IMG/VR virus record: IMGVR_UViG_3300046011_008537
Origin: a virus
Taxonomy: Duplodnaviria; Heunggongvirae; Uroviricota; Caudoviricetes
Reading direction: 5' to 3' (one strand)
Length of the DNA: 64,000 nucleotides
Shown here piece by piece: positions 42,141 to 57,212 of the stretch. The notes under the pieces are model-generated. The model was not told the DNA's origin, did not search any database, and worked only from the letters and a program-made list of their open reading frames with translations. The position numbers were made by a program, and so were the translations under genes. Within the stretch, counting starts at the first letter, position 1. Each line of letters starts with the position of its first letter.

Positions 42141-42149
42141 GAAATAATT

Positions 42150-42962
42150 ATGAGTAAAATTAGTATAGTAACTGCTTTTTTTGATATTGGTAGGGGAGAA
42201 TGGACTCCAGATAAAGGATTGCCTCATTATTTACAAAGATCTACTGATGTTTATATCAAAAGGTTTTCTTATTTGTTGAACTTAGATACAGATATTACTG
42301 TTTATACATCTCCTGACCTTGTTAATACGTTGACAGAATTAAGCGTTGGTAAATTAGCAAAAACAACTATAGTTGGAATTGATTTATCTGAATTTGATAG
42401 TATAAAAGAACGTATTGTAGATATTCAGCAAAACGAATTATTTAAAAATAGTATTTCTCCGAATCAGCTAAAAAATCCTGAATATTGGAATTCAGATTAT
42501 GTATTGGTTACTAACTTAAAAGCATATTTCGTCGATTTATCTATTAAAAATGGATTATCTAAAAATGATATGGTTGCTTGGATTGATTTTGGTTATTGTA
42601 GAAGCGAACAAAATATACCACAAAGTAATTCCTGGGAATATAATTTTGACCCAACAAAACTTCATTTATTTGCATATAAGCAATATGATGGTAAAAATAT
42701 ATTAGAAATAATTGCAACAAATGATGTATACATACTTGGAGCTAAAGTTGTTGCGCATAAATCTATGTGGTCAATTATGGCACAATTAATGAAATCTTCT
42801 CAAGATAAATTATTTGAAAATAATTTTGTTGATGACGATCAAGGTTTATGGTTAATTTCCAGTTTAATGGAACCCTATTTATTTGAGTTGCATACAATAC
42901 CAGATCATCAATTAGGTGGAGATCCTTTTGTTTTGTTTAACGAGTTTAACGATACTGTATGA
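42150..42962 (+). CDS. HtrL/YibB-like (LPS-core-associated) family protein?
   Basis: N-terminal IVTAFFDIGRGEW pattern. Confidence 0.25.
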   Translation: MSKISIVTAFFDIGRGEWTPDKGLPHYLQRSTDVYIKRFSYLLNLDTDITVYTSPDLVNTLTELSVGKLAKTTIVGIDLSEFDSIKERIVDIQQNELFKNSISPNQLKNPEYWNSDYVLVTNLKAYFVDLSIKNGLSKNDMVAWIDFGYCRSEQNIPQSNSWEYNFDPTKLHLFAYKQYDGKNILEIIATNDVYILGAKVVAHKSMWSIMAQLMKSSQDKLFENNFVDDDQGLWLISSLMEPYLFELHTIPDHQLGGDPFVLFNEFNDTV

Positions 42963-44341: not shown

Positions 44342-45141
44342 AAAACATTATATTTTTTATAACTCATAAAACATTAGGCGTTGAACACGCTACAGCTTGT
44401 TTTTATAGTTTATCTAAACAAGAAAATGTTTCTGGTAAATTTGATGCCTTATATATTTACAATACGCACCAAGATGAATTATCAAATGATACGTTAATAG
44501 ATTTATACGAAAAATTTAATTTAAATACTTTTTTTGCTGAAATTAAATTATTTGATTATAATCCTAATACCGAAAAGGCATTAGGTGCAGATATATCAAC
44601 TATTAGAAATTACGTTACGGAAAATTATGTTCAAGAAGATAGAGTTTTATTATTAAAATCTGATTGCCTTTTATCTAAAAATTATTTTAGCGATATTCTT
44701 TCTTTACCTGTAGATATTCCCGCATATTTTGTTGCTCCATTTATTTGTGCAAAAGAAAGAATAACTGATACTGAAATATTTGAATATATTTCTAGAGATT
44801 CGTATATTCAGTCAGATGATATAACGTTTTTTGTGGAAGATCAAATAGGTAGTAGTAATAATGATTTTAATAACCGTCCTGAAGTAAATATAACTGATAA
44901 TAGCATAAAATTTACTTCTTGTTATGTTATTAGAGATTTTTCTTGTCATTTCCTTTCTGTTGGATTATTTGATTTCGTACATATAGCTGTTCAGAGTTGG
45001 GGTGGGGTTAATTTTTCTTCTTTATTTAAGTATTTTATTGGAACTAATCGAAGTTTTGTAGTTCACAAATATCATAGTATTGTTAGTGAAAACAGAGTTA
45101 CAGATAGAGAAGGTCCAGTTGTTTCTTGGTTAAAGAGTTAG
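44338..45141 (+). CDS. hypothetical protein
   Basis: 267 aa. Overlap-coupled. Confidence 0.3.
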   Translation: MKNIIFFITHKTLGVEHATACFYSLSKQENVSGKFDALYIYNTHQDELSNDTLIDLYEKFNLNTFFAEIKLFDYNPNTEKALGADISTIRNYVTENYVQEDRVLLLKSDCLLSKNYFSDILSLPVDIPAYFVAPFICAKERITDTEIFEYISRDSYIQSDDITFFVEDQIGSSNNDFNNRPEVNITDNSIKFTSCYVIRDFSCHFLSVGLFDFVHIAVQSWGGVNFSSLFKYFIGTNRSFVVHKYHSIVSENRVTDREGPVVSWLKS

Positions 45142-45144
45142 TGT

Positions 45145-45810
45145 ATGAGAATAGCAGTTTTAATAGCAGGTCATATAAGATCATGGGATTTTTGTAAACA
45201 AAATTTTTTAGAAAATTTGTATAACGCCAATCATCAAATTGATGTTTTTGTTGACACGTATAATGAAATTTTTAGGTCAGATTATCATCTTCATAAAGAA
45301 TATGAAATGAATATTATTAAAAATTCTGATCAAATTAAACAAATGTTTTCTGGTATTAATGTTGTAAATTTTGGTATAGAACCTGAGGTTGTTGGACCCC
45401 CTCAAGATATGCAAAAAAGAAAATTATTACGAGTATTTAATGATTTTTTACAACATGAAAATATTTATGGAACATATGATTTAGTTATAAGATATAGATT
45501 TGATATATTATTAAATAAACCTTTAAATTATGAATATATATTACAAGAATGTACCAATAATCCTAAATTAATTTTTATTGGTGATGGTGCTGTTCATATG
45601 CCGCAAAACGATATGATGGCAATATGTAATTTCGATGCATTTAAAATATATTTAAATAGATTAAATACTTATCCATATCAACTTGATCCAATGATACATC
45701 ATTATAGTATGGATCATTTAATAGCAGATTTTGGAATTGAATATAGCCAAACAATTGGTATTTCTATTGTTAGGCTTGATGGTAATAAAAATTATAGGAT
45801 TGAAAAATAA
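45145..45810 (+). CDS. uncharacterised putative transferase, paralog A
   Basis: Paralogous to 46511-47182 (IAVLIAGHIRSW/TAILLVGNIRTW; YDLVIRYRFD/YDLVIKTRCD). Confidence 0.35.
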   Translation: MRIAVLIAGHIRSWDFCKQNFLENLYNANHQIDVFVDTYNEIFRSDYHLHKEYEMNIIKNSDQIKQMFSGINVVNFGIEPEVVGPPQDMQKRKLLRVFNDFLQHENIYGTYDLVIRYRFDILLNKPLNYEYILQECTNNPKLIFIGDGAVHMPQNDMMAICNFDAFKIYLNRLNTYPYQLDPMIHHYSMDHLIADFGIEYSQTIGISIVRLDGNKNYRIEK

Positions 45811-46514
45811 TGGTGAATTTATATAATAATGAATCAGATATACATGATAATCAAAATATTTATGATTCGTTTAATAATTTTATTTTTAGTAATGATAGAA
45901 ATGTTTTTAATAAATTACATAGTAAATTTGAATTTTACGATAAAACAAAACATTTACTTGGAGATATTGTAGAATGCGGGGTATTTAAAGGTTCTGGTTT
46001 ATTATCTTGGTTGAAAATTTTGGATATTAATGAACCGCATAGTATTAAAAAGGTTATGGGTTTTGATTTTTTTAATCCATCATTTGTAGATGAATTAAAA
46101 GATGAAACTGATAAACGAACAATGCAACAAGTTTTTGATCGAGATAAAGATTTAGATTTAAATTCTATTTCATATGATGGTATATCTAAAAAAATTATTT
46201 CAGCTGGATTTAATACTTCTAAGTTTGAATTGATACAAGGTGATGTTAGTAAAACTTCTAAACAAATTGTTGTTTCTAGACCTGGATTTAGAATTAGCAT
46301 TTTATATCTTGATATGGATTTAGCAGAACCAACATATGATGCATTAGTTAATTTTTGGGATAATATTGTTTCAGGTGGTATTGTTGTATTTGATGAATAC
46401 GCATATCATAGTTGGAGCGAAGCTAATGGGGTAGATAAATTTATAAGAGAATTTGGTATTGAATTACATAGAACAAATATTAAAGCCCCTACTGCATATA
46501 TTATTAAACCATGA
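45810..46514 (+). CDS. TylF/MycF-type SAM-dependent O-methyltransferase
   Basis: ECGVFKGSG glycine-rich SAM motif and C-terminal GGIVVFDEY pattern of macrocin O-methyltransferase family. Confidence 0.55.
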   Translation: MVNLYNNESDIHDNQNIYDSFNNFIFSNDRNVFNKLHSKFEFYDKTKHLLGDIVECGVFKGSGLLSWLKILDINEPHSIKKVMGFDFFNPSFVDELKDETDKRTMQQVFDRDKDLDLNSISYDGISKKIISAGFNTSKFELIQGDVSKTSKQIVVSRPGFRISILYLDMDLAEPTYDALVNFWDNIVSGGIVVFDEYAYHSWSEANGVDKFIREFGIELHRTNIKAPTAYIIKP

Positions 46515-47182
46515 AAACTGCAATATTATTAGTTGGAAACATAAGAACTTGGTCTTATTGTAAAGAAAATTTTTTACAAACATTTGGACATTTAAATCCT
46601 GATATTTTTGTGTCGACGTATAATTTACAGTATAATCATCATCCATATATACGAAATTTAATTGGAGATAATGAAGATGCATGGCTAACCAATGAAGAAA
46701 TTGCTGATATTTTTTCTGGAATTAATGTTAAAAATATTAGTATTGATAGTAATTTACATTATAATTTGCCTGAAGATGTTAATAGTTTATTTACCGGATT
46801 AGAAACTACATTTTTTCAATATCTTAAATTTTTTCAATCTGTTCAAATAATGAATGAATATGATGAATATGATTTGGTTATTAAGACTCGTTGCGATTTA
46901 TTATATAACCCAATTAATTTTGATAATGTTTTAAATTCTATTATTATTGATTCGGGTAATGTTTATCCTAATGATTGTATTTTAATCGCAAATAAAAATA
47001 ATATTGTAAATATTTCTGAATTTATTATGCAAGAATTTTTTAATCCAATATATAGCAATAGTCATGATACTCCTCCACATGGACTATTGTGTAATGCTAT
47101 TAACCATTTAAATATTCCTGTTCAGCAACAAAAAATTATGAATTGTGTTGTTAGAAAGGGAAATAAAATACAACAATATTAA
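46511..47182 (+). CDS. uncharacterised putative transferase, paralog B
   Basis: See paralog A. Confidence 0.35.
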   Translation: MKTAILLVGNIRTWSYCKENFLQTFGHLNPDIFVSTYNLQYNHHPYIRNLIGDNEDAWLTNEEIADIFSGINVKNISIDSNLHYNLPEDVNSLFTGLETTFFQYLKFFQSVQIMNEYDEYDLVIKTRCDLLYNPINFDNVLNSIIIDSGNVYPNDCILIANKNNIVNISEFIMQEFFNPIYSNSHDTPPHGLLCNAINHLNIPVQQQKIMNCVVRKGNKIQQY

Positions 47183-47183
47183 T

Positions 47184-47630
47184 ATGAAAATTATATCGCA
47201 TAGAGGAAATTTAACTGGACCTTGTTCAGATACAGAAAATCATCCCGATCAAATTAATTTATGTATATCTAAAGGATATGATGTAGAAATTGATTTGTGG
47301 TTTATAGATGGAGATTATTTTCTAGGGCATGACACTCCAACTTATAAAACTTCTTTTAGTTTTTTATTGGAAAGAAAGGATAAATTATGGATTCATTGCA
47401 AAAATCAAGATGCTGTATTTGCGTTGAATAACACTGGATTTAATTATTTTTGGCATCAAGAAGATGATATTACATTAACTTCTCAAGAATTTATTTGGGC
47501 TTATCCAGATAAGCATGCAAAATATTTTAAAAACCTTGTTATATTGGATTTTACAAAAAACGTTAATTTTGATTTTTATAAAAGCCGTGGAGTATATGCA
47601 GTTTGCATTGATTATATTATAGGTAATTAA
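47184..47630 (+). CDS. glycerophosphodiester phosphodiesterase (GDPD)-family protein, short form
   Basis: HRGN...TENHP...DVEIDLWFIDGDYFLGHD pattern of GDPD catalytic motifs. Start at MKIISHRG; ORF-track start at 47145 rejected. Confidence 0.45.
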   Translation: MKIISHRGNLTGPCSDTENHPDQINLCISKGYDVEIDLWFIDGDYFLGHDTPTYKTSFSFLLERKDKLWIHCKNQDAVFALNNTGFNYFWHQEDDITLTSQEFIWAYPDKHAKYFKNLVILDFTKNVNFDFYKSRGVYAVCIDYIIGN

Positions 47631-47631
47631 A

Positions 47632-48600
47632 ATGAAAATAGCTTTTCAAACGAATACAATTTGTCATAGAGGTACCACTGTGGCAATTTTAGATTATGCA
47701 AAATATAATCAGGAAATTTTAGGTAATGAGAGTATAATTGTTTATCCTACAAATTTTAGTGATTCTGGAGTTAGTTCTGATTCATTAACGCAACAAGATG
47801 TTTTGGTGGAAGTTAAGAAACAATTTACCGTAATCGGTTATACTTCTCTTGCTGAATTGGATAAAATAGTAGAAGATAATAATGTTGATGCTACTTATTT
47901 TATTAAAGGTGGATTTAATGATGGTTTAGTTACAACAAAATCTAAAAATTTAATTCATGCAGTATTTCAGGCTAATCAGCCTCATGGAGACAAATATGTT
48001 TATATCTCAGAATGGTTGTCTGATTATGTTAGTAATGGTAAAATTGATTTTGTTCCACATATAGTTGATTTACCAAAAACTAAACAAACTAATTTTAGAG
48101 AAAAATTAGGAATAGATAAAAATAAAATAGTTGTTGGTCGAATTGGTGGGTTGCGCCAATTCGATATTCCTTTTGTGTTAGAAACTATTGCTCAATTTGC
48201 ATACAAAAATTTAGATTATGTTTTTGTATTTGTAAATACATTTAAATTCATTAATTTGCCAAATGTTATATTTATTGATCCAATAATTGATGAACAAGAA
48301 AAAACTGATTTTATTTTATCTTGTGATGCGATGATTCATGGTAGAAGCGATGGAGAATCTTTTGGTTTAGCTATTTGTGAAGGGTTATTTCATAATAAAC
48401 CTGTATTTTGTTTTAATGGTGGTCGTGATAAACATCATATAACTTTATTAAAAGATAGTGGATTATTATATAATAATGCTATTGAATTGCGCGATATGTT
48501 ACTTAATGTTAAATTATATAATAAAAATTATTCTAAATTAGTAGAAAAATTTAACCCGCATACAGTTATGGAAAAGTTTAAAACCGTTTTCCTTGATTAA
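47632..48600 (+). CDS. GT4-like (retaining) glycosyltransferase
   Basis: E-x7-E motif region GRSDGESFGLAICEGLFHNKPVF. Confidence 0.55.
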   Translation: MKIAFQTNTICHRGTTVAILDYAKYNQEILGNESIIVYPTNFSDSGVSSDSLTQQDVLVEVKKQFTVIGYTSLAELDKIVEDNNVDATYFIKGGFNDGLVTTKSKNLIHAVFQANQPHGDKYVYISEWLSDYVSNGKIDFVPHIVDLPKTKQTNFREKLGIDKNKIVVGRIGGLRQFDIPFVLETIAQFAYKNLDYVFVFVNTFKFINLPNVIFIDPIIDEQEKTDFILSCDAMIHGRSDGESFGLAICEGLFHNKPVFCFNGGRDKHHITLLKDSGLLYNNAIELRDMLLNVKLYNKNYSKLVEKFNPHTVMEKFKTVFLD

Positions 48601-48606
48601 AAGTGC

Positions 48607-48635
48607 TTGACAATATAGATGTTTTATATTATAAT
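48607..48635 (+). promoter_or_regulatory. early-type promoter TTGACA-17-TATAAT (upstream AAGTGC element) inside the sugar island; 7-bp inverted repeat ATAGATG/CATCTAT brackets the -10
   Basis: Perfect consensus hexamers. Confidence 0.6.
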
Positions 48636-48663
48636 AGGGCATCTATTTAAAAAAAGGTGATAT

Positions 48664-49569
48664 ATGAAAGTATTGGTTACTGGTGGTTGCGGTTTTATTG
48701 GAAGTCATTTAATTGATGCACTAGTTGACTCTGGTTATACCGTTGTTAATGTTGATGATTTGTCAGCTGATAATGATCAATTTTATTTTAATGAAAACGT
48801 TAAAAATTATCATTTTGATATTTGTAATACTAAACAATTAATTTCAGTTAGTAAAGGGTGTGAATTTATATTTCATTTAGCCGCTGAATCTAGATTAGGT
48901 GCTTCTATTGCTAATCCAAGAAAGGCAATTGATTCTAATATTAAAGGCGTTGTTTCTGTATTAGAAGCAGCAAAAGCAAATAAGATTAAAGGTATTGTTT
49001 TCTCTTCAACTTCTTCAATATATGGATTAAATACAAATTTTCCATTAAAAGAAACTGAGCGAGAAGATTGTTTAAACGCATATGCATCAACTAAATATGC
49101 AGCAGAATTATTTTTGAGAAACTATTATGAAATTTACGGAATTAAATCAGTTATTCTTCGCTATTTTAATGTTTATGGCGAACGTTCTCCCAAATCTGGC
49201 CAATATGCGCTAGTATTGGGTATCTTTGAAAAATTATTAAAAGATGGTAAACCATTAACAGTTACTGGTGATGGAACCCAAGAGCGAGATTTTATACATG
49301 TAAAAGATATTGCTCAGGCTAATATACGGTGTATTGCTAATTTTGATGCAAACCCAGATATGTGGAAAGCTCAAGTATTTAATATTGGATATGGACAAAC
49401 AAAAACTATTAATGAAATTGCTAATACTTTATCAGATAGTATTGTTTATATTAAAAAACCCGCTGGTGAGGCATTAAATAATTTATCAGATAATACTAAA
49501 TTTAAGTTAGCAACAGATTGGGTTCCAACTATAAATGTGCTTGACTGGATTAAAGAAAAACTATTATAA
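48664..49569 (+). CDS. NAD-dependent sugar epimerase/dehydratase (GalE-like SDR)
   Basis: Rossmann VLVTGGCGFIGSHL and catalytic YASTKYAAE (YxxxK). Confidence 0.8.
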   Translation: MKVLVTGGCGFIGSHLIDALVDSGYTVVNVDDLSADNDQFYFNENVKNYHFDICNTKQLISVSKGCEFIFHLAAESRLGASIANPRKAIDSNIKGVVSVLEAAKANKIKGIVFSSTSSIYGLNTNFPLKETEREDCLNAYASTKYAAELFLRNYYEIYGIKSVILRYFNVYGERSPKSGQYALVLGIFEKLLKDGKPLTVTGDGTQERDFIHVKDIAQANIRCIANFDANPDMWKAQVFNIGYGQTKTINEIANTLSDSIVYIKKPAGEALNNLSDNTKFKLATDWVPTINVLDWIKEKLL

Positions 49570-49577
49570 TATAAATA
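49570..49577 (+). promoter_or_regulatory. late promoter TATAAATA upstream of the His-rich ORF
   Basis: Exact TATAAATA. Confidence 0.45.
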
Positions 49578-49614
49578 GTTAATTATATTATACACATTAA
49601 ACCAGAGAGGTTAT

Positions 49615-50787
49615 ATGCTAAGTTTTAAAGATTTTCTTGTTGAGAACGAGGAAGAAGGTGCTAAATTAAAGCACATTAAACATCCAGAAGATAGAGTTTT
49701 TGAAGGTTCAAATGGATATGCTCATGCTCGAGGTGCATTGCATCATGCGCATGATGCAATTAAATCTGGAGAACATAGCACTAACCTTACCATGAAATAC
49801 GATGGATCTCCTTCCATCGTATATGGTCATCATCCAGAGAATGGTAAATTCTTTGTGGCAAGCAAATCTGCATTTAATAAAAATCCAAAAATAAATTATA
49901 CTCACGAAGATATTGAGCAAAACCATGGCCATGCTCCTGGATTAGTTGAGAAGTTAAAAGATTCGTTGGATCATTTACATAAAATTACTCCAAAAAAGGG
50001 TGTATATCAAGGCGATTTAATGTTTAGTGGAGATGATAAGAAACATAATGATAATGGATCCGTATCATTTACTCCAAATACAATTAAATATACTGCTCAC
50101 GGCGAAGAAGCAGATAAAGTTAAAAAAGCAAAATTAGGTGTTGTTACTCATACTCAGTATCATGGAGATACCTTATCTTCTATGAAAGCTGATCCTCATC
50201 CAGATTTACATAATTTTAAATCTCATGATCATGTTTGGAGTAAAACTCCAGAACATGATACCAAAAACGTTCATTACAGCGAATCTGATCAAGCTAAATT
50301 TCAAAAACATATGGATGCCGCTGATAAAATTCATAAAGCGCATAAAGATACTATATATGATTCTACAGCACCTCATGGTGGTGACAGTGGGCATTTAGCG
50401 ACATATATTAATCATACGGTTAGAACTGGCGAAAAACCTTCTGCAGATGGATTGCAGAATCATATAGCAGGTAAATATGAAAAACAAATTGATAAGTTAA
50501 AAAGTGATGCAGGTAAAGCTAGAAAACATACTGAACTGACTAGTCATCTATCTCATATTGCTGGTAATTCTGATCATTATAATCGTTTATTAAAAATGCA
50601 TGGCCATTTACAGTCGGCTAAAAATATTTTAACCAAAACATTAAATCAACATGAAGGTGGATTAGAACACCATATTGGTGACAAAAGAACTAATCCGGAA
50701 GGATTTGTTATTCATCATAATGGAGAACCAACTAAACTTGTTAATAGAGAAGAATTTTCTAAAGCTAATTTGTTAAAGGTACGTTAA
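49615..50787 (+). CDS. His-rich protein with possible nucleotidyltransferase-ligase-like motifs (KYDGS...EGFVI); function unknown
   Basis: Motif I-like TMKYDGSPS (compare T4 Rnl1 TKEDGSLVS) and motif IV-like EGFVIHH near C-terminus. Long His/Lys/Asp-rich middle. Late promoter. Confidence 0.3.
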   Translation: MLSFKDFLVENEEEGAKLKHIKHPEDRVFEGSNGYAHARGALHHAHDAIKSGEHSTNLTMKYDGSPSIVYGHHPENGKFFVASKSAFNKNPKINYTHEDIEQNHGHAPGLVEKLKDSLDHLHKITPKKGVYQGDLMFSGDDKKHNDNGSVSFTPNTIKYTAHGEEADKVKKAKLGVVTHTQYHGDTLSSMKADPHPDLHNFKSHDHVWSKTPEHDTKNVHYSESDQAKFQKHMDAADKIHKAHKDTIYDSTAPHGGDSGHLATYINHTVRTGEKPSADGLQNHIAGKYEKQIDKLKSDAGKARKHTELTSHLSHIAGNSDHYNRLLKMHGHLQSAKNILTKTLNQHEGGLEHHIGDKRTNPEGFVIHHNGEPTKLVNREEFSKANLLKVR

Positions 50788-51410
50788 TGAGCACTAAAAA
50801 TCCTGTTGTTACTGCTTTTGGTAGAATGAATCCACCTACAACTGGGCACTTACAGTTAATTAATGCTGTTCGTTCTACTGCAGAAAAAGAAAATGCTGAT
50901 CATGATATTATCGCTTCAGGTAGTCATGATCCAAAGAAAAATCCATTAACTTCAGAACACAAATTAAAACATTTATCTAGATATTCTCCTGGAACTAATT
51001 TCTCGGTAGCGGATTCTAAATCCCCAACATTATTACATCATTTATCTAAATTACACGATAAAGGTCATGATCATTTAATTTATGTTGCGGGTTCGGATCG
51101 CACAAAAGGTATGGAAGAATTAATACATAAATATAATGGAGTACCTTCTAAACATGGATATTATAATTTTAAAAAAATAGAAGTACGTTCTGCTGGACAT
51201 AGAGATCCAAATGCAGAAGGAACTGCTGGTATGTCTGGAACTAAAATGCGAGAATTTGCTAAAAACAATGATTTTCATTCATTTAGACAAGGAGTTCCAT
51301 CTCACGTTTCAGATGATCATGCAAAAGAATTGATGAGTGATGTTAAATCTGGTATGAATGTTCATGAATCATATATTCGTGGATTTTTAAACAAAATAAG
51401 ACTATTTTAA
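50787..51410 (+). CDS. HxGH nucleotidyltransferase (NadM-type NMN adenylyltransferase-like / cytidylyltransferase superfamily)
   Basis: AFGRMNPPTTGHLQLI (GRxxPxHxGH) and downstream SGTKMRE (ISSTxxR-like). Confidence 0.55.
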   Translation: MSTKNPVVTAFGRMNPPTTGHLQLINAVRSTAEKENADHDIIASGSHDPKKNPLTSEHKLKHLSRYSPGTNFSVADSKSPTLLHHLSKLHDKGHDHLIYVAGSDRTKGMEELIHKYNGVPSKHGYYNFKKIEVRSAGHRDPNAEGTAGMSGTKMREFAKNNDFHSFRQGVPSHVSDDHAKELMSDVKSGMNVHESYIRGFLNKIRLF

Positions 51411-51411
51411 A

Positions 51412-52221
51412 ATGCAAAATAAACAAGCAATTTTTATTATCGGATCTCCTGGATCCGGAAAGGATGTCGTAATTAGAGATATTGCATCTAATTACGGTAT
51501 TGTAGAATTTACGTCAACTCAAATTGATGAGATGTTGTATAATGACGCAGTATTTAAACGAGCTAAATCGGAAAAACAAGATTCTCTTTTAGAAAGATAT
51601 TCCATACTCGTTACTGGAAATTTATTCGATCTGGGGTTTGTTATAACTAAAGATATATTAGAAACAATTGGTTATACAACGCATTTAATTGTTGTTGAGG
51701 CTAATTTAGGAATTGCTGTAGAACGATTAAAAGATAGAAAAAATTTAAAAGAATCATTGGATAGAATTAGTGTTGGAAATGCAAATAGACAAGCAATTAT
51801 TAGTTTATTTAACTCTTATATTACTGTGGATAATTCAAAATCATTGGATTTAACTGAATCAAGAGAATTTATTTATGATATTTTAGAAGATTTAACATTT
51901 AAATCAGATTTACGTTTAGAAGAAATTGTAAAAATTAATTTGAAGAAAAAGGTTAATAAAATTGTTCCATTAAAACTTCCTGCTGATTCTTCTGATACTA
52001 GAAGTATGACTCCAGGAACATGGTCTGTTTATAATGGAGTTGCTGAATCAGTTGAATCGCCTAATTATGATATTTCTCCAATAGCTACTGGTCCTATGCA
52101 AAGTACCGCGTCTTCAACAGTTAGTATGCAATCTGATCAAGATAAAGAAAATACTAGAAAAGTGTTGAATAAAATTAAAAAAATAAATTTTAAAAAGGTG
52201 GTTCCCCGTGGAATTGGATGA
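51412..52221 (+). CDS. P-loop kinase (adenylate/nucleoside/polynucleotide-kinase-like) with disordered C-terminal tail
   Basis: Walker A IFIIGSPGSGKD. About 150-aa kinase-like core then low-complexity tail. Confidence 0.5.
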   Translation: MQNKQAIFIIGSPGSGKDVVIRDIASNYGIVEFTSTQIDEMLYNDAVFKRAKSEKQDSLLERYSILVTGNLFDLGFVITKDILETIGYTTHLIVVEANLGIAVERLKDRKNLKESLDRISVGNANRQAIISLFNSYITVDNSKSLDLTESREFIYDILEDLTFKSDLRLEEIVKINLKKKVNKIVPLKLPADSSDTRSMTPGTWSVYNGVAESVESPNYDISPIATGPMQSTASSTVSMQSDQDKENTRKVLNKIKKINFKKVVPRGIG

Positions 52222-52921
52222 ACAAATGCATAATAAATTTACTTCATTAAAGTCTTTATTTAAATCTACTGATCCATCAAAGCATTTTCATGGAACTAAA
52301 CCTAGAAAATTCTCTACTGGGAAAGATCAAATGGATCCATCTCATGCACAGTTAACTTCTAAATCAAATTCAAATAATGCTCCTGTATCAATGGGATTTA
52401 AAGATAAGTTACTGAATCATTATAGAGAAAATTTTACTGAATTAAATGAAGATAACTCAACTAGGATTTACCGTAATGCATTATCTGCTAAATCAGCTTA
52501 TGCTGGAATTAAACTGTATTCAAAATATACTAATCCACAAATATTAAAAAATACTCGTAAATTTGCAAATAGAGAAAAACAGATAACTAAATCTGATAGT
52601 GAAAATAAAGCTGATACTGCATTAATGACTACTATAAACAGAGAGCATGAACATAATTATGAAATGCAACATCATCAACAGCATCATCCAGAGCCAGTAG
52701 AACCTAGATTAAAACAGCGCGTTTTATCTAAATTTATGCCAAAGAAACCAAATGTTTCTAGTTCTGCTATGCATAATTCGCGACAAATTGCACAGAAACA
52801 AGATTCATTAGCGGTTCATCGTGCGCCTACTGCTCATGCTGTACATATAGATACAACTCCATCGCATTCAATTAGTCATCCAACTCCAGTGCATCCAGTA
52901 AAACCAAACAAAACTAAATAA
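52208..52921 (+). CDS. low-complexity His/Pro-rich hypothetical protein
   Basis: 237 aa, compositionally biased. Confidence 0.3.
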   Translation: MELDEQMHNKFTSLKSLFKSTDPSKHFHGTKPRKFSTGKDQMDPSHAQLTSKSNSNNAPVSMGFKDKLLNHYRENFTELNEDNSTRIYRNALSAKSAYAGIKLYSKYTNPQILKNTRKFANREKQITKSDSENKADTALMTTINREHEHNYEMQHHQQHHPEPVEPRLKQRVLSKFMPKKPNVSSSAMHNSRQIAQKQDSLAVHRAPTAHAVHIDTTPSHSISHPTPVHPVKPNKTK

Positions 52922-52935
52922 TAGGAGATATATAA

Positions 52936-53349
52936 ATGGATTTACAAAGTATTAAAGCGCTTAAATTAGAAAATTCTTTATCTGATATTGAAATTACAGA
53001 AGAAATTGAACAAATTAATGAAGTTAGTAATTATGACCAAGTTGTAACTTATTATAGACATTTAGGATTAGATCCATATAAATTGCGTGGAATTACCGGA
53101 GCAAAACTTCGCGATAAAATTAAGAATTCTCCTGCATTTAAAGCATGGTTACAATTAAAAAATAGATTAGAAGATGTAGAACAAGATTCAACGAAATCAT
53201 TAGTTGAAACAATTAAAGATGCTAAGAAAGATAGTATTGGAAAAAAGGCAAAAGTAACATTTTACGGTTATCCAGATAAAAATGCTAAAGTAAGTAATAC
53301 TGACTTGGAGCAGGCTAATACTCCAAATAATTATCTTAACCAAAATTAA
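52936..53349 (+). CDS. hypothetical protein
   Basis: 137 aa. RBS GGAG. Confidence 0.3.
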   Translation: MDLQSIKALKLENSLSDIEITEEIEQINEVSNYDQVVTYYRHLGLDPYKLRGITGAKLRDKIKNSPAFKAWLQLKNRLEDVEQDSTKSLVETIKDAKKDSIGKKAKVTFYGYPDKNAKVSNTDLEQANTPNNYLNQN

Positions 53350-53368
53350 AACTTATTACCTATAAATT

Positions 53369-53752
53369 ATGGATGACTTGACTGAAGATAATTTTTTATT
53401 ATTTGCTGCAAAACATTATTATTCTGTGCATTATTCTATGACTGAATTTAATTCCGATTTAAAAAGAATAATTTACATTAAACGATTGTTAAAGAAATAT
53501 AAAAAATCCGGCGAATTAGCTGAACGGTTAATTTTAAATCATTTAATATTATTATATAACGTTTTTGAACCAACTATAGCTGTAAATAAAATGTTGTTTT
53601 TTAAATTAGATGATAATTGCTATAGTGCATTAAAAACGTTTTTAGTTTATCTAAATAGAATGCCTACAGAAATTTTGTATGATGGAACTAAATTAATTTC
53701 CTCTGATATTCCTTTAGATATGGAAATCGCAAAAATATTAAGAGAATTATGA
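53369..53752 (+). CDS. hypothetical protein
   Basis: 127 aa. Confidence 0.3.
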   Translation: MDDLTEDNFLLFAAKHYYSVHYSMTEFNSDLKRIIYIKRLLKKYKKSGELAERLILNHLILLYNVFEPTIAVNKMLFFKLDDNCYSALKTFLVYLNRMPTEILYDGTKLISSDIPLDMEIAKILREL

Positions 53753-53926
53753 AAACATTTAAACAATTTTTAGAAGAAGATGGAGAAGGTGCTCCTGCTG
53801 CGGTTAGTACCGCTCCAACTAATACTACAAATGGTATAGCAGGACTTAAAGATCCTGGAGTAAAAATGCCAAGAAAAAAACAATCTACAGTTATGACTGG
53901 AACTCCAATAACAAGGGCAGGATAAA

Positions 53927-54451
53927 ATGGATAATAAATATAAAAATAAATTAACTTCTATTATTGAAGATTGCGGTTTTAATAGAACACGTAAAGCTAA
54001 TCAAAAAGAAATAGAACAAGCTTTATTTGAAGCTACAAAACCTGGATATCCGCCTGAAGAAGCTCAAGATCCAAGTTCAAAAGAAGGAATTTCCAATGCA
54101 ATTGCTTCTGAATTTTTTGCTCGCTGTAGAGCTCTAGCTACAACTACTCATTTTGCTCATTTAAGTACAGATTCTTTTTCAGAACATTCTGCTCTAACAA
54201 CTTTTTATGAAGAAATTGTTGAAACTGTAGATAAATTCTGTGAAGCTTATATTGGATTATATGGTAAATTTATTAGTTTGCCTCCAATTGTTGCTGAAAT
54301 GAAAATCGCAGTTGATGCTATTATAGAATTTAGGGATTGGATTTCTAAAAATAGAGGATTAATTACTGATGATACTTCTATGCAAAATATAATTGACGAA
54401 TCTGTTGAATTATGCAATACTACAATTTATAAATTACAAAAATTAAAATAA
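53927..54451 (+). CDS. hypothetical protein
   Basis: 174 aa. Confidence 0.3.
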   Translation: MDNKYKNKLTSIIEDCGFNRTRKANQKEIEQALFEATKPGYPPEEAQDPSSKEGISNAIASEFFARCRALATTTHFAHLSTDSFSEHSALTTFYEEIVETVDKFCEAYIGLYGKFISLPPIVAEMKIAVDAIIEFRDWISKNRGLITDDTSMQNIIDESVELCNTTIYKLQKLK

Positions 54452-54654
54452 CTGGTATTTGTTATGATGACTGTCAAAGAGGCAACCCCGATGATCCATT
54501 ATAATAATTATAACGATAAAGAAATATTATCAAAAAGTAATATAGCAAAAAGACTTAACTTATTGCGATCTTTAGAAAATTATTCTCATAAACTAGATAA
54601 ATTACTTGAACAAACATCAAAAATAGAAGATATTTCTCTAAAGGCGGGCAGATA

Positions 54655-55113
54655 ATGGCAGATAATTCAACGTTGCATGATGTAAGAGTCGAAACGTTAT
54701 CGGAATTAAAAGTTGAAGTTGCAGTCTTAAAACAAGAAGTCGGATTTATTAATAGGCTTTTTAGTAGAATCGAAGACGTAATTGATAAAATCGATACTCA
54801 ACATGCAGCAGTATTAGATAAAACTACGAAAATAGAATATAACCTTCTTAATACTAAAGATGAATTAGAAGATTTATATAAAATATTAGAAGACTCTGAG
54901 AAAAATATTTCAAGTAGAATTAATGCTATTGAGAAGTTATTAACAGAGGAAATTAATTCTATGAATAAAACTTTAACTGATAGAGTTGATAAAAATGAAG
55001 CCAAAACTGTAGACCTATTACAATACAAATGGTTATTGTGGGGCGGCGGTGTAGTTGTTTTATGGATATTTTCAAATATTGATATGCTTAAAAAATTATT
55101 TGTAATAAAATAA
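54655..55113 (+). CDS. coiled-coil protein with C-terminal transmembrane anchor
   Basis: 152 aa. Heptad-rich, C-terminal WLLWGGGVVVLWIF. Confidence 0.35.
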   Translation: MADNSTLHDVRVETLSELKVEVAVLKQEVGFINRLFSRIEDVIDKIDTQHAAVLDKTTKIEYNLLNTKDELEDLYKILEDSEKNISSRINAIEKLLTEEINSMNKTLTDRVDKNEAKTVDLLQYKWLLWGGGVVVLWIFSNIDMLKKLFVIK

Positions 55114-55146
55114 TGCTTTACTTTTTTATCTTTTCGTAGTATAATA

Positions 55147-55174
55147 AGCCTGAATATAAACTTCAGGCTTTTTT
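55147..55174 (+). terminator. intrinsic terminator AGCCTGAA-N7-TTCAGGCT + T6
   Basis: Perfect 8-bp stem and U-tract. Confidence 0.7.
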
Positions 55175-55177
55175 ATA

Positions 55178-56179
55178 ATGAGCATTTGGATAGATAGAAA
55201 ATACATTTTAATGTTATCACCTAAGTTGGAACTCTTTAAACAAAAGAATACCAACCTATATACCATGCGTTGCCCATATTGCGGCGACTCTCAGAAAATG
55301 AAATCAAAAACTCGTGGATTCGTTTATGCAAAAAACGATAATTATTTCTACACGTGTTTTAATTGCGATAAAGGAACAACTCTTAGATCTTTGCTTGGTT
55401 ATCTAGATCCTCATCTAGAACAAGAATATATCATGGAAAATTTCCAGGAAAAATTTACTGGAAAGAAAACTAATTCTATTGATAAACCTGCAATTCCAAA
55501 ATTTAAAATTCAAGATAAAAAAATAGATTTACCTACTATTGCTGATTTAGATGATAGTCATATTGCTAAAAAGTATATCTTAGATCGCAAAATACCAGAA
55601 AAATATCTTAAATATCTATTTTTTACTGATGATTTTAAGGCTTTTGTTGAATCAGTTTCCGATAAAAAACTTGATCAAACTGGTCCAAGGGTAATTATTC
55701 CATTTTATTCTAGATCTGGTGATTTAGTTGCATTTCAGGGAAGAGCTCTTGATAGTTATTCCATGAGATATATAACAGTAAAGATTGACAGGGAACAAGA
55801 AAAGATTTTTGGGCTGGATAAAGTTGATCCAATGAAGCTGATTTATGTTGTAGAGGGTCCATTCGATTCTTTATTCCTACCAAACGCGATCGCAACTGCA
55901 GACTCAAATTTGGCTGCTGCAGCTAATGTGTTTGATAAGAGTAAGTTGATACTAATCCCTGACTGCGAGCCTAGAAACGCGAATATCGTTAAAAATATCG
56001 GGAAGTTTATTAAGAATGGGTTCTCTGTTTGTTTATTACCAGAATCATTTGGAGTTAAGGATATTAATGATGCAATAAAAAATGGCTTGACGCAGGAGGA
56101 ATTATTAGTTATAATAAGTAATAACACCTTCTCTGGGTTACGAGCTGAACTGGAATACTTAAATTGGAAGAAAATATGA
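55178..56179 (+). CDS. 61: DNA primase gp61
   Basis: Zn-ribbon CPYCGDS...CFNC and TOPRIM region (EGPFDSLF) as in T4 gp61. Confidence 0.8.
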   Translation: MSIWIDRKYILMLSPKLELFKQKNTNLYTMRCPYCGDSQKMKSKTRGFVYAKNDNYFYTCFNCDKGTTLRSLLGYLDPHLEQEYIMENFQEKFTGKKTNSIDKPAIPKFKIQDKKIDLPTIADLDDSHIAKKYILDRKIPEKYLKYLFFTDDFKAFVESVSDKKLDQTGPRVIIPFYSRSGDLVAFQGRALDSYSMRYITVKIDREQEKIFGLDKVDPMKLIYVVEGPFDSLFLPNAIATADSNLAAAANVFDKSKLILIPDCEPRNANIVKNIGKFIKNGFSVCLLPESFGVKDINDAIKNGLTQEELLVIISNNTFSGLRAELEYLNWKKI

Positions 56180-56414: not shown

Positions 56415-57212
56415 ATGTTTTTACAAAATAAATATACAAATTTTTATTATGCTATTATTGAAAATTCAAAACAACGGGATTTACCTCAATATTATGAAAA
56501 GCATCATATTATACCGAAATGTTTAAATGGAAATGATTCTATTGATAATATCGCGAATTTAACTGCTAGGGAACATTTTATTTGTCATTTATTATTGACT
56601 AAAATGGTAGAAAATAATTCGGGGATTAAATTCGCTTTACATATGATGACGAATGTTAATGGAAATCAACAAAGAAATTATAAAATTAATTCTCGAATAT
56701 ATGATTATATTAAAAAGTTAAATTCAGAAGCTTGTTCTGAACGTAATCGTAATAGAGTATATACAACTGGAAGAAAAAAATATTTTAATACAATTATTGG
56801 AAAATATGAATTTTTTAATGACGGGGATATTATACCAGAAAGTTATACTAAAGGTTGGAATGCGGATTTTAAAGTAAATATATCATCTAAAAATAAAGGT
56901 CGAGTATATTACTATAATCCAGAAACTTTTGAAACTAAAGCATTTACTGCTGAACACACTATTCCTAATGGTTGGATAAAAGGTAATCCAAATGCTGATA
57001 CATCAAGCGTTACGCAAATAAAAGGAAAAAAATATTTCCATAATCCGCTAACTTACGAAGAAAAACGATTAGATTTTTGTCCAGATGAATGGGTTAGTGG
57101 TAGAATATTTGTTTGGATTACAGATGGTAAACAAAATTTACAATACAATAAATATGAATCTATGCTACCTGGATTTAGATATGGTAGGACTAACATGAAA
57201 AAAGGAAAATAA
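56415..57212 (+). CDS. HNH homing endonuclease with repeated C-terminal DNA-binding modules
   Basis: KHHIIPKCLNGNDSIDNIANLTAREHFICH; repeated G(R/K)xYYxNP modules. Confidence 0.7.
   Translation: MFLQNKYTNFYYAIIENSKQRDLPQYYEKHHIIPKCLNGNDSIDNIANLTAREHFICHLLLTKMVENNSGIKFALHMMTNVNGNQQRNYKINSRIYDYIKKLNSEACSERNRNRVYTTGRKKYFNTIIGKYEFFNDGDIIPESYTKGWNADFKVNISSKNKGRVYYYNPETFETKAFTAEHTIPNGWIKGNPNADTSSVTQIKGKKYFHNPLTYEEKRLDFCPDEWVSGRIFVWITDGKQNLQYNKYESMLPGFRYGRTNMKKGK

Follow-up and report, generated by a model that had tools for sequence, protein, structure and literature searches.

Several described systems bear on the locus analysed here. Nucleic-acid end-healing and sealing is represented by T4 Pnk together with RNA ligase 1/2, by bacterial Pnkp/Hen1 and by the fungal/plant tRNA ligase Trl1, which serve as comparators for the module that we describe. 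T4 Pnk and Rnl1 are ordinary cytoplasmic enzymes, and we know of no end-healing/sealing system that has a HIGH-type nucleotidyltransferase. HIGH-type enzymes are instead represented by the NadM-type NMNATs and by NadR. A further point of comparison is provided by T4 internal proteins IPI, IPII, IPIII and Alt and the capsid-targeting sequence (CTS) of T4, which reads MKTYQEFIAE and whose positional rules we take from the literature. Phage NAD+ reconstitution pathways have also been described by Osterman et al. (2024).

Here we analyse a module of three genes in a 64,000-nucleotide window (the whole stretch of DNA under study) from a marine T4-like phage. The genes encode a DUF6267 protein, a nucleotidyltransferase (NTase) and a kinase, and they form the core of a module conserved among marine T4-like myoviruses, the Kyanoviridae and relatives. 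DUF6267 is found in about 470 and the NTase in about 560 sequenced phage records, and there are thousands of metagenomic relatives. DUF6267 and its neighbouring “cytidyltransferase” are near-universal in the Kyanoviridae, a family of cyanophages and pelagiphages that is dominant in ocean viromes, and were previously a pair without an assigned function. The predicted ligase fold of DUF6267, its linkage or fusion to the NTase, kinase and a phosphatase, and the leaders carried by these proteins provide a testable biochemical hypothesis for this pair.

Operon layout and transcription

The features of the window that are referred to below are as follows:

12203-12844, + strand: gp21-type head maturation protease, predicted to remove the leader in trans
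12897-13979, + strand: gp22 scaffold, adjoining gp21
21772-22437, + strand: gp55-type late sigma factor (phrog_234, 1.4e-54), the trans-acting factor for TATAAATA promoters
49541-49570, + strand: sigma-70-like promoter TTGACT-18-TATAAT (11/12 matches; consensus match only)
49570-49577, + strand: T4-type late promoter core TATAAATA, 45 nt 5' of the DUF6267 ATG
49605-49610, + strand: ribosome-binding site GAGAGG as read from the sequence, its last base 4 nt before the DUF6267 ATG
49615-50787, + strand: ORF, DUF6267 protein of 390 aa
49615-49644, + strand: predicted capsid-targeting leader MLSFKDFLVE, DUF6267 residues 1-10, in the T4 CTS register
50787-51410, + strand: ORF, NTase of 207 aa, annotated “cytidyltransferase” in cyanophages
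51412-52221, + strand: ORF, kinase of 269 aa
51412-51906, + strand: P-loop kinase domain, residues ~1-165, with Walker A GSPGSGKD
51907-52221, + strand: kinase C-terminal extension, with a low-complexity linker that varies and, after it, the conserved basic terminal peptide KKINFKKVVPRGIG
52208-52921, + strand: His-/Pro-/Ser-/Lys-rich basic ORF of 237 aa
53749-53925, + strand: ORF of 58 aa that starts MKTFKQFLEE, the only other window ORF with the CTS register
55146-55170, + strand: intrinsic-terminator-like hairpin followed by a T run (consensus match only)

All three ORFs that the original prediction had placed at 49570-52221 are present there. The DUF6267 and NTase genes meet at TAATG and the NTase and kinase genes at TAAaATG, junctions which indicate that the three genes are tightly coupled and that translation of the NTase is coupled to that of DUF6267 via TAATG. 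The 237-aa ORF that comes after the kinase gene is the third most His-rich in the window and has no Pfam or PHROG match. Its product may be an internal protein encoded in the DUF6267 transcription unit, the sole analogy being a basic low-complexity virion protein that is encoded 3' of the NTase in phage S-SZBM1. The hairpin at 55146-55170 is the sole terminator-like one on the + strand from 49300 to 55300, which suggests a transcription unit of ~5.6 kb that extends from 49570 to 55170.

A late promoter had been proposed for the 390-aa protein, and TATAAATA is indeed located 45 nt upstream of its gene. The motif as such is not enriched across the window (15 copies versus ~20 expected). Its placement is more informative, as all but one of the 11 + strand copies fall between genes, and 7 sit 34-55 nt before ORF starts that include those of the sheath, tube and scaffold. 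The copy upstream of DUF6267 has the spacing seen at the sheath, tube and gp22 genes. Conservation extends to related loci, 33 of 76 of which have the motif ahead of DUF6267, versus 2.3% of random 160-nt windows. The sigma-70-like promoter abuts or overlaps the late promoter at 49570 and, judged by its match to consensus, could provide additional early expression of the operon, so expression may not be purely late; the region contains 27 matches of this kind versus 35.6 expected, which is no enrichment.

DUF6267: predicted ligase fold and capsid-targeting leader

The 390-aa ORF matches Pfam DUF6267 (E 8.8e-100), which is the only family found in a Pfam search, and has 6232 homologues. It had been described as His-rich, and with 10.8% His it ranks at the top of the 67 window ORFs, for which the median is 2.0%. 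The predicted model (pLDDT 85.8) exhibits the fold of a nucleotidyltransferase domain with RNA ligases, not DNA ligases, as its top matches. On the basis of this model, DUF6267 appears to be a covalent nucleotidyltransferase with a polynucleotide-ligase fold. The original suggestion of an Rnl1-like motif I is therefore correct at the level of the fold, and the motif I and EGxV on which it was founded are present as LTMKYDGSPS and PEGFVI.

Putative ligase motifs in DUF6267 are I (K61-Y-D-G), III (Q132-G-D134), IIIa (F152xPNTIxY159), IV (P361-E-G-F-V365) and V (K374-L-V-N-R378), with III, IIIa, IV and V assigned by pattern alone. Residues K61, D63 and G64 are invariant in 16 sequences that range down to 31% identity as well as in 39 closer sequences. 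Also invariant are Q132/G133/D134, F152...Y159, P361/E362/G363/V365 and K374/V376/R378, which follow one another in ligase order and with ligase-like spacing. There are several departures from the usual pattern. Motif III has Asp in place of the Glu that is usual in ligases, motif V reads K-x-x-x-R, a helical insertion of ~120 residues (about 223-343) separates motif IIIa from motif IV, and a C-terminal OB domain is absent. Phmmer and profile searches of the PDB with DUF6267 gave no ligase match, and hhalign comparison with T4 Rnl2 gave a probability of 0.13%.

The first ten residues of DUF6267 have the arrangement of a T4-type CTS, which calls for aromatics at both position 4 and position 7, L/I at 8 and E at 10. 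In MLSFKDFLVE, F4 and F7 occupy the targeting positions while L8 and E10 occupy the gp21 processing positions, and by analogy with T4 cleavage is predicted after E10. This strict register is found at only 2 of the 476 ATG starts in the window, the second being that of the 58-aa ORF, which from its sequence is a candidate small internal peptide. A leader is present in 77 of 111 DUF6267 homologues (69%), in 31% of NTase-first proteins and in 27% of kinases versus 2.9% of other ORFs; in this window DUF6267 alone has one, the NTase and kinase being leaderless. Residues 1-19 are disordered in the predicted model and leaderless DUF6267 homologues begin just before a HLEHxED motif. The window also encodes gp21 (phrog_207, 5e-67), gp22 (phrog_237, 2.5e-74) and gp55, as expected for a phage with T4-type internal proteins.

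Members of this module have been reported from phage particles. Leader-bearing NTase homologues were detected in the virion proteomes of S-SZBM1 (ORF140, leader MRFRQFIIEA) and S-CREM2 (ORF154, leader MKNFSSFLTE), while the leaderless DUF6267 of S-SZBM1 (ORF141) was not reported in the virion proteome; such detections are possibly abundant late proteins that co-purify with particles, according to the authors of PMC10665884. We infer that the DUF6267 protein of this window is packaged in the capsid. The leader and the virion association had escaped the original prediction and they change the biological picture, since a capsid-targeting leader on DUF6267 points to what is probably a head-packed enzyme kit that is co-injected with DNA, not to ordinary NAD metabolism.

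The NTase, the kinase and their linkage

The NTase is a HIGH-superfamily (Rossmann-type) nucleotidyltransferase with an NMNAT/PPAT-like fold that matches PF01467 at 1.2e-6 and phrog_3041 at 1.5e-58 and has 892 homologues. The GRxxPxxxGH and SGTxxR motifs originally noted in ORF 50787-51410 are present as FGRMNPPTTGH and MSGTKMR. Together with SHDPKKNPLT, GSDR and SAGHRDPNAEG...SGTKMR, they give this protein both the (H/T)xGH and the ISxTxxR-type motif that accompany the HIGH Rossmann fold. Fold comparison ranks NadM highest (13.4), followed by M. jannaschii NMNAT (12.5), NadD (~12) and NadR (10.8). Family models are less decisive. The NTase scores 15.3 bits against TIGR00482, far below the curated NMNAT cutoff of 112. 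Among 37 family members, the NMNAT models are weakly matched by 19, 17 and 10 (the last two counts being those for TIGR01526 and NF002243) and PPAT by 9. Membership of the NMNAT and NadR families fails every curated threshold.

ORF 51412-52221 had been called a P-loop kinase, and it is one, related to Zeta/AAA_33/PSTK-type kinases. In addition to the Walker A GSPGSGKD, its domain contains LIVVEA, a hydrophobic strand that includes E96, as well as R105...R109 in a LID-like segment, and there are 62 homologues. The window kinase itself is below every family cutoff (AAA_33 18.1 bits versus a cutoff of 27). AAA_33, a broad family that is not specific to polynucleotide kinases, is weakly matched by 29 of 30 members of the kinase family. 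An orthologue in phage HTVC008M scores above the Pfam thresholds, with 50 bits for Zeta_toxin and 43.9 bits for AAA_33, and has the tRNA-directed kinase PSTK as its best NCBIfam match (2.5e-10); the profile of the window kinase family aligns with this protein at an hhalign probability of 93.7% (E 1.9e-7). The window kinase domain also shares 32% identity with the kinase portion of NTase-kinase fusions. The family matches listed are AAA_33, AAA_18 and Zeta_toxin, with no AAA_28/RNK (NadR) among them. The C-terminal extension, as defined from an alignment of 30 family members, has a possible docking or targeting role.

Linkage was counted in 74 assessable related loci. The NTase is located within 5 kb downstream of DUF6267 in 70 of these (95%) while a kinase is present in ~25%. 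Thus, the strictly conserved partnership is that of the ligase-fold protein with the NTase and not that of the NTase with the kinase. A census of fusions identified 7 DUF6267-NTase proteins, one of them the 591-aa protein of S-PM2, and at least 13 NTase-kinase proteins, in addition to 5 stand-alone adjacent kinases. A leader-bearing HAD phosphatase (DxDxT) adjoins the module in at least 15 related loci, with the gene order DUF6267, HAD, then NTase...kinase in one of them (L075); a tblastn search found no such phosphatase in the 64-kb window.

Readings of the module and known systems

We tentatively favor the view that this is a virion-delivered module for nucleic-acid end-healing and sealing, which is the best reading of the evidence although we give it somewhat less than an even chance. 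We infer all of its catalytic activities as well as its substrate, which may be phage DNA or RNA. In this model, the gp55-type late promoter TATAAATA at 49570 would drive the coupled DUF6267-NTase-kinase operon. The leader would guide DUF6267 into the prohead scaffolding core, where the gp21 protease would trim it after Glu10, and DUF6267 would be retained in the DNA-filled head until ejected with the genome into the next host. Once there, the ligase-fold protein, with Lys61 as its predicted AMP-accepting nucleophile, would join 3'-OH and 5'-phosphate ends, with the P-loop kinase phosphorylating 5'-OH ends and the leader-bearing HAD phosphatase of many relatives removing 3'-phosphates. As the obligate partner of DUF6267, the NTase would make or regenerate an adenylyl donor such as an NAD+-type dinucleotide; alternatively, it may adenylylate a terminal phosphate. 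Because HIGH-type enzymes are absent from known end-healing systems, the most conserved partner is without an established role in this model. A bolder version of this model, which we regard as a long shot, is that DUF6267 is a new family of polynucleotide ligases that the most abundant marine myoviruses carry in their capsids along with an NMNAT-like donor maker, forming a pre-loaded strand-break repair kit co-injected with the genome. In this version the NMNAT-like enzyme would make or recycle an NAD+-type dinucleotide (NMN + ATP) for the ligase, which would explain the fusions. Such a kit, to which the 5'-kinase and 3'-phosphatase would have been added in some lineages, would mend phage DNA damaged by sunlight or nucleases, or RNA cleaved by the host, ahead of phage gene expression.

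It is possible, but rather unlikely, that the module instead functions in NAD+ supply as a counter-defence. The NTase would then be an NMN/NaMN adenylyltransferase and the kinase an NR kinase, constituting a split NadR-like route (NR -> NMN -> NAD+) that rebuilds NAD+ in hosts with NAD-depleting defence, perhaps as early as the onset of infection in view of its delivery by the virion, with DUF6267 either an NAD+-consuming partner or functionally separate. The top fold matches of the NTase are NMNATs, weak matches to NMNAT models are commoner than those to PPAT, and the motifs GRMxPxxxGH, SxSHxxxxNP(L/F)T and SGTxxR resemble those of archaeal NMNATs. Databases and literature also label homologues NMNAT or “NadR-like”. 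The original proposal that the pair corresponds to the two halves of NadR holds in that NTase-kinase fusions share the NadR domain order, but not at the level of family membership, as every NMNAT, NadR and NR-kinase threshold is failed (15 bits versus 112 in the example given above) and the kinase has relatives in AAA_33, Zeta toxin and PSTK and no NadR RNK match. A pure NAD-salvage model also fails to explain why the kinase is present in ~25% of loci when the ligase-fold partner, sometimes fused, is present in ~95%. Moreover, neighbouring HAD phosphatases would oppose an NR kinase, and the module is universal among phages that infect SAR11, Prochlorococcus and similar hosts, which have few defence systems. 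End-healing and sealing is better supported than stand-alone NAD salvage, with neither proven.

Three further readings are less likely still. One, which we consider improbable, is that DUF6267 serves the Kyanoviridae, which lack a gp30-type ligase, as their replicative or recombination DNA ligase, sealing Okazaki fragments or nicks before packaging with a cofactor supplied by the NTase. According to a review, gp30 is one of the quasicore genes that marine cyanophages lack, and Synechococcus, Prochlorococcus and Cyanophage are outside the ten most frequent genus names (at least 63 records each) among the 2645 phage records with gp30, while ~456 records under these three names encode DUF6267. 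The ligase fold and the conserved position of DUF6267 between gp41 helicase and gp61 primase, in the replication gene cluster, fit as well. However, phage DLP6 encodes a gp30 ligase alongside the DUF6267-NTase pair, the fold resembles RNA ligases more than DNA ligases and is without an OB domain, and a late promoter with a capsid-targeting leader is unexpected for an Okazaki-fragment ligase. We consider it highly improbable that the pair is a phosphopantetheine adenylyltransferase and a dephospho-CoA kinase. JGI auto-annotation does call many kinase homologues “dephospho-CoA kinase”, and bifunctional CoA synthase has the order NTase then kinase, as in the fusions. The CoaE model nevertheless covers only the P-loop of the kinase (E 0.03, residues 7-35), the PPAT matches of the NTase family are below cutoff so that neither CoaD nor CoaE membership is supported, and this pairing offers no rationale for ligase-fold coupling or capsid targeting. 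Hardly credible, finally, is a sugar- or alcohol-phosphate cytidylyltransferase (TagD/CCT-like) that serves the neighbouring glycosylation island at 40771-49569. The locus is directly 3' of this epimerase and glycosyltransferase island, the Pfam family is named CTP_transf_like and “cytidyltransferase” is the historical annotation of homologues. Yet GCT and CCT folds score 9.3 and 8.9, well below the adenylyltransferases (12.5-13.4), there is no TagD-type NCBIfam match, and the NTase is still partnered with DUF6267 in Syn1, HTVC008M, Melnitz, DLP6 and S-SZBM1, all of which are without a sugar island at this position. Neither fold, family nor sugar-gene linkage therefore points to the glycerol-3-P/choline-P cytidylyltransferase that the original prediction had named as the assignment that would count against it.

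These findings suggest that non-enterobacterial T4-like phages also deliver enzymes via capsid targeting, beyond small anti-restriction proteins. If both packaging and repair activity are confirmed, the module would be, to our knowledge, the first virion-borne nucleic-acid repair kit in a bacteriophage, and it would be relevant to the survival of marine phages exposed to UV and to the nucleases of their hosts. The recent “NMNAT / anti-NAD-depletion” label on the NTase would also need re-examination.

When compared with known systems, DUF6267 has no detectable sequence homology to any Rnl family. Relative to T4 Pnk/Rnl, Pnkp/Hen1 and Trl1, it has the IIIa-IV insertion and no C-terminal domain, its obligate partner is a HIGH-type adenylyltransferase that is absent from those systems, and the kinase and phosphatase are optional. 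Unlike T4 Pnk and Rnl1, the module is predicted to be late-expressed and has capsid-targeting leaders. The NTase shares the HIGH Rossmann fold, GRxxPxxxGH and SGTxxR with NadM-type NMNATs and NadR, its best structural matches, and in relatives a P-loop kinase comes after it within the same polypeptide, as in NadR. It differs from NMNAT in having Thr for the first His of HxGH, as in PPAT, and from NadR in its strict linkage to a ligase-fold protein and in a kinase that is not of RNK type. No Nampt or Nudix partner is found in the 6 kb of the window downstream of the operon promoter. TmcAL and MJ0951 (UPF0348), acyl-adenylate-forming HIGH enzymes that act on tRNA, rank below NMNAT and PPAT as matches, and unlike TmcAL the NTase has no C-terminal tRNA-binding domain. 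The cargo proteins are unrelated to T4 IPs and Alt, and they differ from these in that the leader is present or absent on different module members by lineage and is here read from sequence, with processing and injection predicted. Like IPI, IPII, IPIII and Alt, DUF6267 has a 10-residue CTS and predicted late expression in a phage with gp21 and gp22, and virions have been found to contain homologues. The predicted cargo is an enzyme, as is Alt.

Genomic setting and expression of the locus

The window derives from a marine T4-like myovirus with a GC content of 30%. Its closest cultured relatives are members of the Kyanoviridae (Pelagibacter phage HTVC008M, Methylophilales phage Melnitz and cyanophages) with protein identity of ~30%, while matches to phages at the DNA level are short and cover only 2-5% of the query. 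The window encodes head and tail proteins (sheath, tube, gp20 portal, gp21 protease, gp22 scaffold and gp23 capsid) as well as UvsW, the gp55 late sigma factor, gp46, the clamp loader, gp43 polymerase, UvsX and gp41 helicase. The helicase gene is followed by a sugar-modification island, three ORFs that are the subject of this analysis, several small ORFs and the gp61 primase gene, beyond which are genes for thymidylate synthase, MazG and NrdB/NrdA. Inside this nucleotide-metabolism block of thymidylate synthase, MazG, NrdB and NrdA are two paralogues (56415-57212 and 62508-63149) that encode homing endonucleases; both belong to PHROG 655 and match an HNH endonuclease family more weakly. An ORF call of the window confirmed all three originally described ORFs and placed them head to tail on the plus strand.

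Features of the locus
40771-49569: sugar island, ~9 kb, inserted between the gp41 helicase and DUF6267 genes
49570-49577, + strand: TATAAATA, T4-type late promoter core
49615-50787, + strand: ORF, DUF6267 protein, 390 aa
50787-51410, + strand: ORF, nucleotidyltransferase (NTase), 207 aa
51412-52221, + strand: ORF, kinase, 269 aa

The DUF6267 stop codon overlaps the NTase start (TAATG) and a single base separates the NTase stop from the kinase start, so that the three genes are translationally coupled. A copy of the late promoter core TATAAATA is positioned 45 nt ahead of the DUF6267 start codon. Across the AT-rich window the motif is no more frequent than expected, yet 10 of its 11 plus strand copies are intergenic, and seven are located 34-55 nt before ORF starts that include those of sheath, tube and scaffold. 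Of 76 related loci, 33 have it upstream of DUF6267, as compared to 2.3% of random windows. A near-consensus sigma-70-type promoter (TTGACT-18-TATAAT, 11 of 12 matches) in the 49541-49577 region overlaps TATAAATA by one base, a sequence arrangement suggesting that the operon could be expressed both early and late. Between 49300 and 55300 the only terminator-like hairpin on the plus strand is at 55146-55170, just before the primase gene. Consequently, one late transcription unit may extend from 49570 to 55170 and take in about ten ORFs, among them those for DUF7207 and a Dps-like DUF5856 protein.

Predicted identities of the three proteins

Along its full length the 390-aa protein belongs to Pfam DUF6267 (E 8.8e-100), a family with 6232 metagenomic relatives that tblastn detects in 470 sequenced phage records, nearly all of them from cyanophages or pelagiphages. 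In cellular genomes, DUF6267 occurs solely on MAG contigs of mutually inconsistent taxonomy, which almost certainly represent phage DNA binned in error; in effect the family is thus confined to phages and provides no informative cellular context. No literature was found on DUF6267. Fold comparison matched the protein to Naegleria RNA ligase (9.2), T. brucei REL1 (8.3), T4 Rnl2 (7.9), S. solfataricus DNA ligase (7.5), T4 Rnl1 (7.4) and Trl1 tRNA ligase (6.8), with many more DNA ligases ranking below Trl1. In a viral structure library the confident matches are all unannotated phage proteins, and RNA ligases are the first named folds. Residues that are invariant in an alignment that took in sequences down to 31% identity fit the ligase motif pattern, in correct order and with plausible spacing.

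Putative ligase motifs of the DUF6267 protein, each invariant in the alignment
Motif I: K61-x-D63-G64
Motif III: Q132-G-D134
Motif IIIa: F152-x-P-N-T-I-x-Y159
Motif IV: P361-E-G-x-V365
Motif V: K374-x-V-x-R378

An inserted helical segment of ~120 residues stands between motifs IIIa and IV, and the C-terminus is located directly past motif V. Searches of PDB sequences with phmmer and with a profile gave nothing useful. An hhalign comparison of the DUF6267 profile with T4 Rnl2 was not significant, and thus the ligase assignment is based on fold and motifs and not on sequence homology. The original prediction had remarked on an Rnl1-like motif I and an EGxV motif, which was a good lead. We regard the DUF6267 protein as a ligase-fold enzyme with an activity that is predicted from its modeled structure and conserved residues.

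Fold matches of the NTase are led by NadM NMNAT (13.4), PPAT (12.7), archaeal NMNAT (12.5) and NadD (about 12), followed by NadR (10.8), TmcAL (10.7) and FAD synthetase (10.7). Among 37 members of the NTase family, NCBIfam searches gave weak matches to NMNAT models in 19, 17 and 10 members versus nine for PPAT, every one of them far below curated cutoffs. Together, the fold and NCBIfam matches define the NTase as a distinct family nearest to NMNAT and PPAT. In phmmer and profile searches of PDB sequences, only MJ0951 (0.004) and PPAT (0.41) were recovered. A role as a cytidylyltransferase of the sugar island was rejected, with the fold matches to GCT (9.3) and CCT (8.9) ranking below those named above. 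Along with ORFs that match no PHROG, this island encodes a HAD-fused protein (42959-44341), an NAD-dependent epimerase and a glycosyltransferase that is GT1-like by a weak Pfam match. The corresponding position has no such island in Syn1, HTVC008M, Melnitz, DLP6 or S-SZBM1, all of which keep the DUF6267 and NTase pair.

The kinase has a Walker A motif (GSPGSGKD) in a kinase domain of ~165 residues; a disordered linker of variable sequence follows, and the C-terminus is a conserved basic peptide. It has 62 relatives, all uncultured, and tblastn found no match in sequenced phages. It scores under every family cutoff, with AAA_33, AAA_18 and Zeta_toxin as the most consistent weak matches, and PDB sequences gave nothing beyond P-loop-level matches to adenylate kinases. 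Two links help to identify the kinase. It shares 32% identity (E 5e-12) with the C-terminal half of naturally occurring NTase-kinase fusions. Furthermore, its family profile matches a stand-alone kinase of HTVC008M whose gene is situated between those for DUF6267 and the NTase (hhalign probability 93.7%, E 1.9e-7); the HTVC008M protein scores above the Pfam cutoffs for Zeta_toxin and AAA_33, and its top match in NCBIfam is PSTK, a tRNA-directed kinase (2.5e-10). Beyond the P-loop, no support was found for the proposed NadR-type NR kinase, nor for a dephospho-CoA kinase.

Predicted capsid-targeting leaders and virion association of homologues

Residues 1-10 of the DUF6267 protein (MLSFKDFLVE) match the T4 capsid-targeting sequence MKTYQEFIAE at exactly the positions that are important in T4, where targeting depends on residues 4 and 7 and cleavage by gp21 on residues 8 and 10. 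The gp21 protease, gp22 scaffold and gp55 are all encoded in the window. This predicted leader register occurs in two of the 476 ATG-initiated frames of the window, DUF6267 and a 58-aa ORF at 53749, and within the module it is on DUF6267 only, with the NTase and kinase being leaderless. Across related loci the leader is carried by DUF6267 in 69% of cases, by NTase-first proteins in 31% and by stand-alone kinases in 27%, three classes with unrelated folds, and by 2.9% of other ORFs, mostly genes flanking the module. A cultured phage with the leader on its DUF6267 protein is DLP6 (MMKFTQFLAE). Residues 1-19 of DUF6267 are disordered in the model, and leaderless homologues start just before a conserved HLEHxED motif, in keeping with a detachable propeptide.

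Published virion proteomes detected the NTase homologue ORF140 of S-SZBM1, which starts MRFRQFIIEA, and the NTase ORF154 of S-CREM2, whose sequence begins MKNFSSFLTE and whose gene is preceded by TATAAATA at a distance of 27 nt. Co-purification is possible, as the authors of PMC10665884 caution. The leaderless S-SZBM1 DUF6267 protein, ORF141, was not reported. The S-SZBM1 virion protein ORF139, a basic low-complexity protein encoded downstream of the NTase, was rejected as a DUF6267 homologue, which is instead ORF141. We infer that the DUF6267 protein of the window is packaged.

Several additional observations concern leaders and composition. The 58-aa ORF (53749-53925) starts MKTFKQFLEEDGEG, and predicted cleavage would leave a 48-residue basic peptide, making its product a candidate small internal peptide. 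In the kinase family, the region corresponding to 51907-52221 contains a hypervariable low-complexity linker followed by the conserved basic peptide KKINFKKVVPxGI, which could be a docking or targeting signal of this kinase that has no N-terminal leader. A leader-like start is also present on a 330-420 aa protein without a Pfam match that is encoded immediately upstream of DUF6267 in related loci L015 (3964-5208), L017 (4125-5369), L019 (4695-5936), L021 (1017-2255), L030 (5015-6001), L039 (3770-4771), L045 (4724-5998) and others. This gives the gp41-gp61 interval the look of a cluster of genes for leader-bearing (internal) proteins; in the window, the sugar island occupies the place of this upstream gene. 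Finally, the three most His-rich of the 67 window ORFs are adjacent, namely DUF6267 (10.8%), the NTase (8.2%) and the ORF at 52208-52921 (7.6%), against a median of 2.0%. The HTVC008M and Syn1 DUF6267 homologues are much less His-rich, as judged by eye from the alignment, so the enrichment looks like a clade-specific compositional shift; metal binding and pH-dependent DNA binding inside the head are possible causes.

Module composition and possible function

The analysis drew on 80 viral-contig loci and 46 MAG loci that encode DUF6267 relatives; their ORFs were searched with an HMM per component, and linkage counts are based on 74 loci that have enough downstream sequence. The NTase is the most tightly linked partner, occurring on the same strand within 5 kb of DUF6267 in 70 of these 74 loci (95%), and a kinase is present in 18-20 of them (about 25%). 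DUF6267-NTase fusions were found seven times in the census, in eight loci by another HMM search and also in S-PM2 (A0A0M6VVW4), and there are 13 NTase-kinase fusions. Other NTase fusion partners are an SH3-like segment, DUF5824 and a further C-terminal domain. A DxDxT HAD phosphatase family directly adjoins DUF6267 in at least 15 loci, as in L075 where the gene order is DUF6267, HAD (7733-8422) and then NTase...kinase. The window itself contains no DUF5824, SH3-like segment or HAD phosphatase of the module.

Variation in NTase architecture is considerable. Loci L017, L019, L021, L024 and L064, which have a fused DUF6267-NTase, encode a second, more divergent NTase paralogue a few genes downstream that is fused to an SH3-like segment. 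In HTVC008M (L001, 7401-9191), Melnitz (L002, 6634-8586) and DLP6 (L004, 3809-5977) the NTase is the N-terminal domain of a 600-720 aa protein that also holds an SH3-like segment, long basic low-complexity linkers and DUF5824 (PF19141), to which Melnitz adds a Cys-rich C-terminal domain that elsewhere is a separate small ORF. NTase homologues of the jumbo phages PA5oct (L006, Pseudomonas) and Muenster (L005, Klebsiella) have no adjacent, easily detected DUF6267. The PA5oct gene sits among structural genes confirmed by mass spectrometry, and BFVD contains a distant DUF6267-like PA5oct protein (A0A4Y5JUK8, E 4e-5).

The locus as originally observed is confirmed and its interpretation partly supported. 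Between the two readings offered, an end-healing trio or NAD salvage by a split NadR, the former is favored because of the invariant ligase-fold partner, the PNK/PSTK/Zeta-type kinase relatives and the DxDxT phosphatase in many lineages. Supply of NAD+ as the primary function is a serious rival and is a label already used in some cyanophage papers and records, but it leaves the ligase-fold partner, the fusions and the HAD neighbors unexplained. Two facts point to DUF6267 as the "missing" replicative ligase: its gene lies between gp41 and gp61, and Kyanoviridae apparently are without a gp30-type ligase (none of their genus names is among the ten most frequent in the 2645 records with gp30 matches). 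However, the late promoter and leader on DUF6267 count against this role, and the presence of both gp30 and DUF6267 in DLP6 weakens the idea of a simple gp30 replacement.

The catalytic functions that we infer for the module would have it heal and seal nucleic-acid ends. In such a system the NTase may make or recycle an adenylyl donor for the ligase (e.g., an NAD+-type dinucleotide), or may adenylylate a terminal phosphate. The locus probably has a role other than ordinary metabolism; it forms the center of an enzyme module that is widespread and uncharacterised and that appears to be targeted to the capsid. The ligase-fold, kinase and phosphatase components of this module would constitute a set of activities that is shared with T4 Pnk and Rnl, Pnkp and Trl1. 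What is unusual relative to known end-healing and sealing systems is the T4-type capsid-targeting leaders and the HIGH-type adenylyltransferase partner, which to our knowledge is contained in no known repair system.
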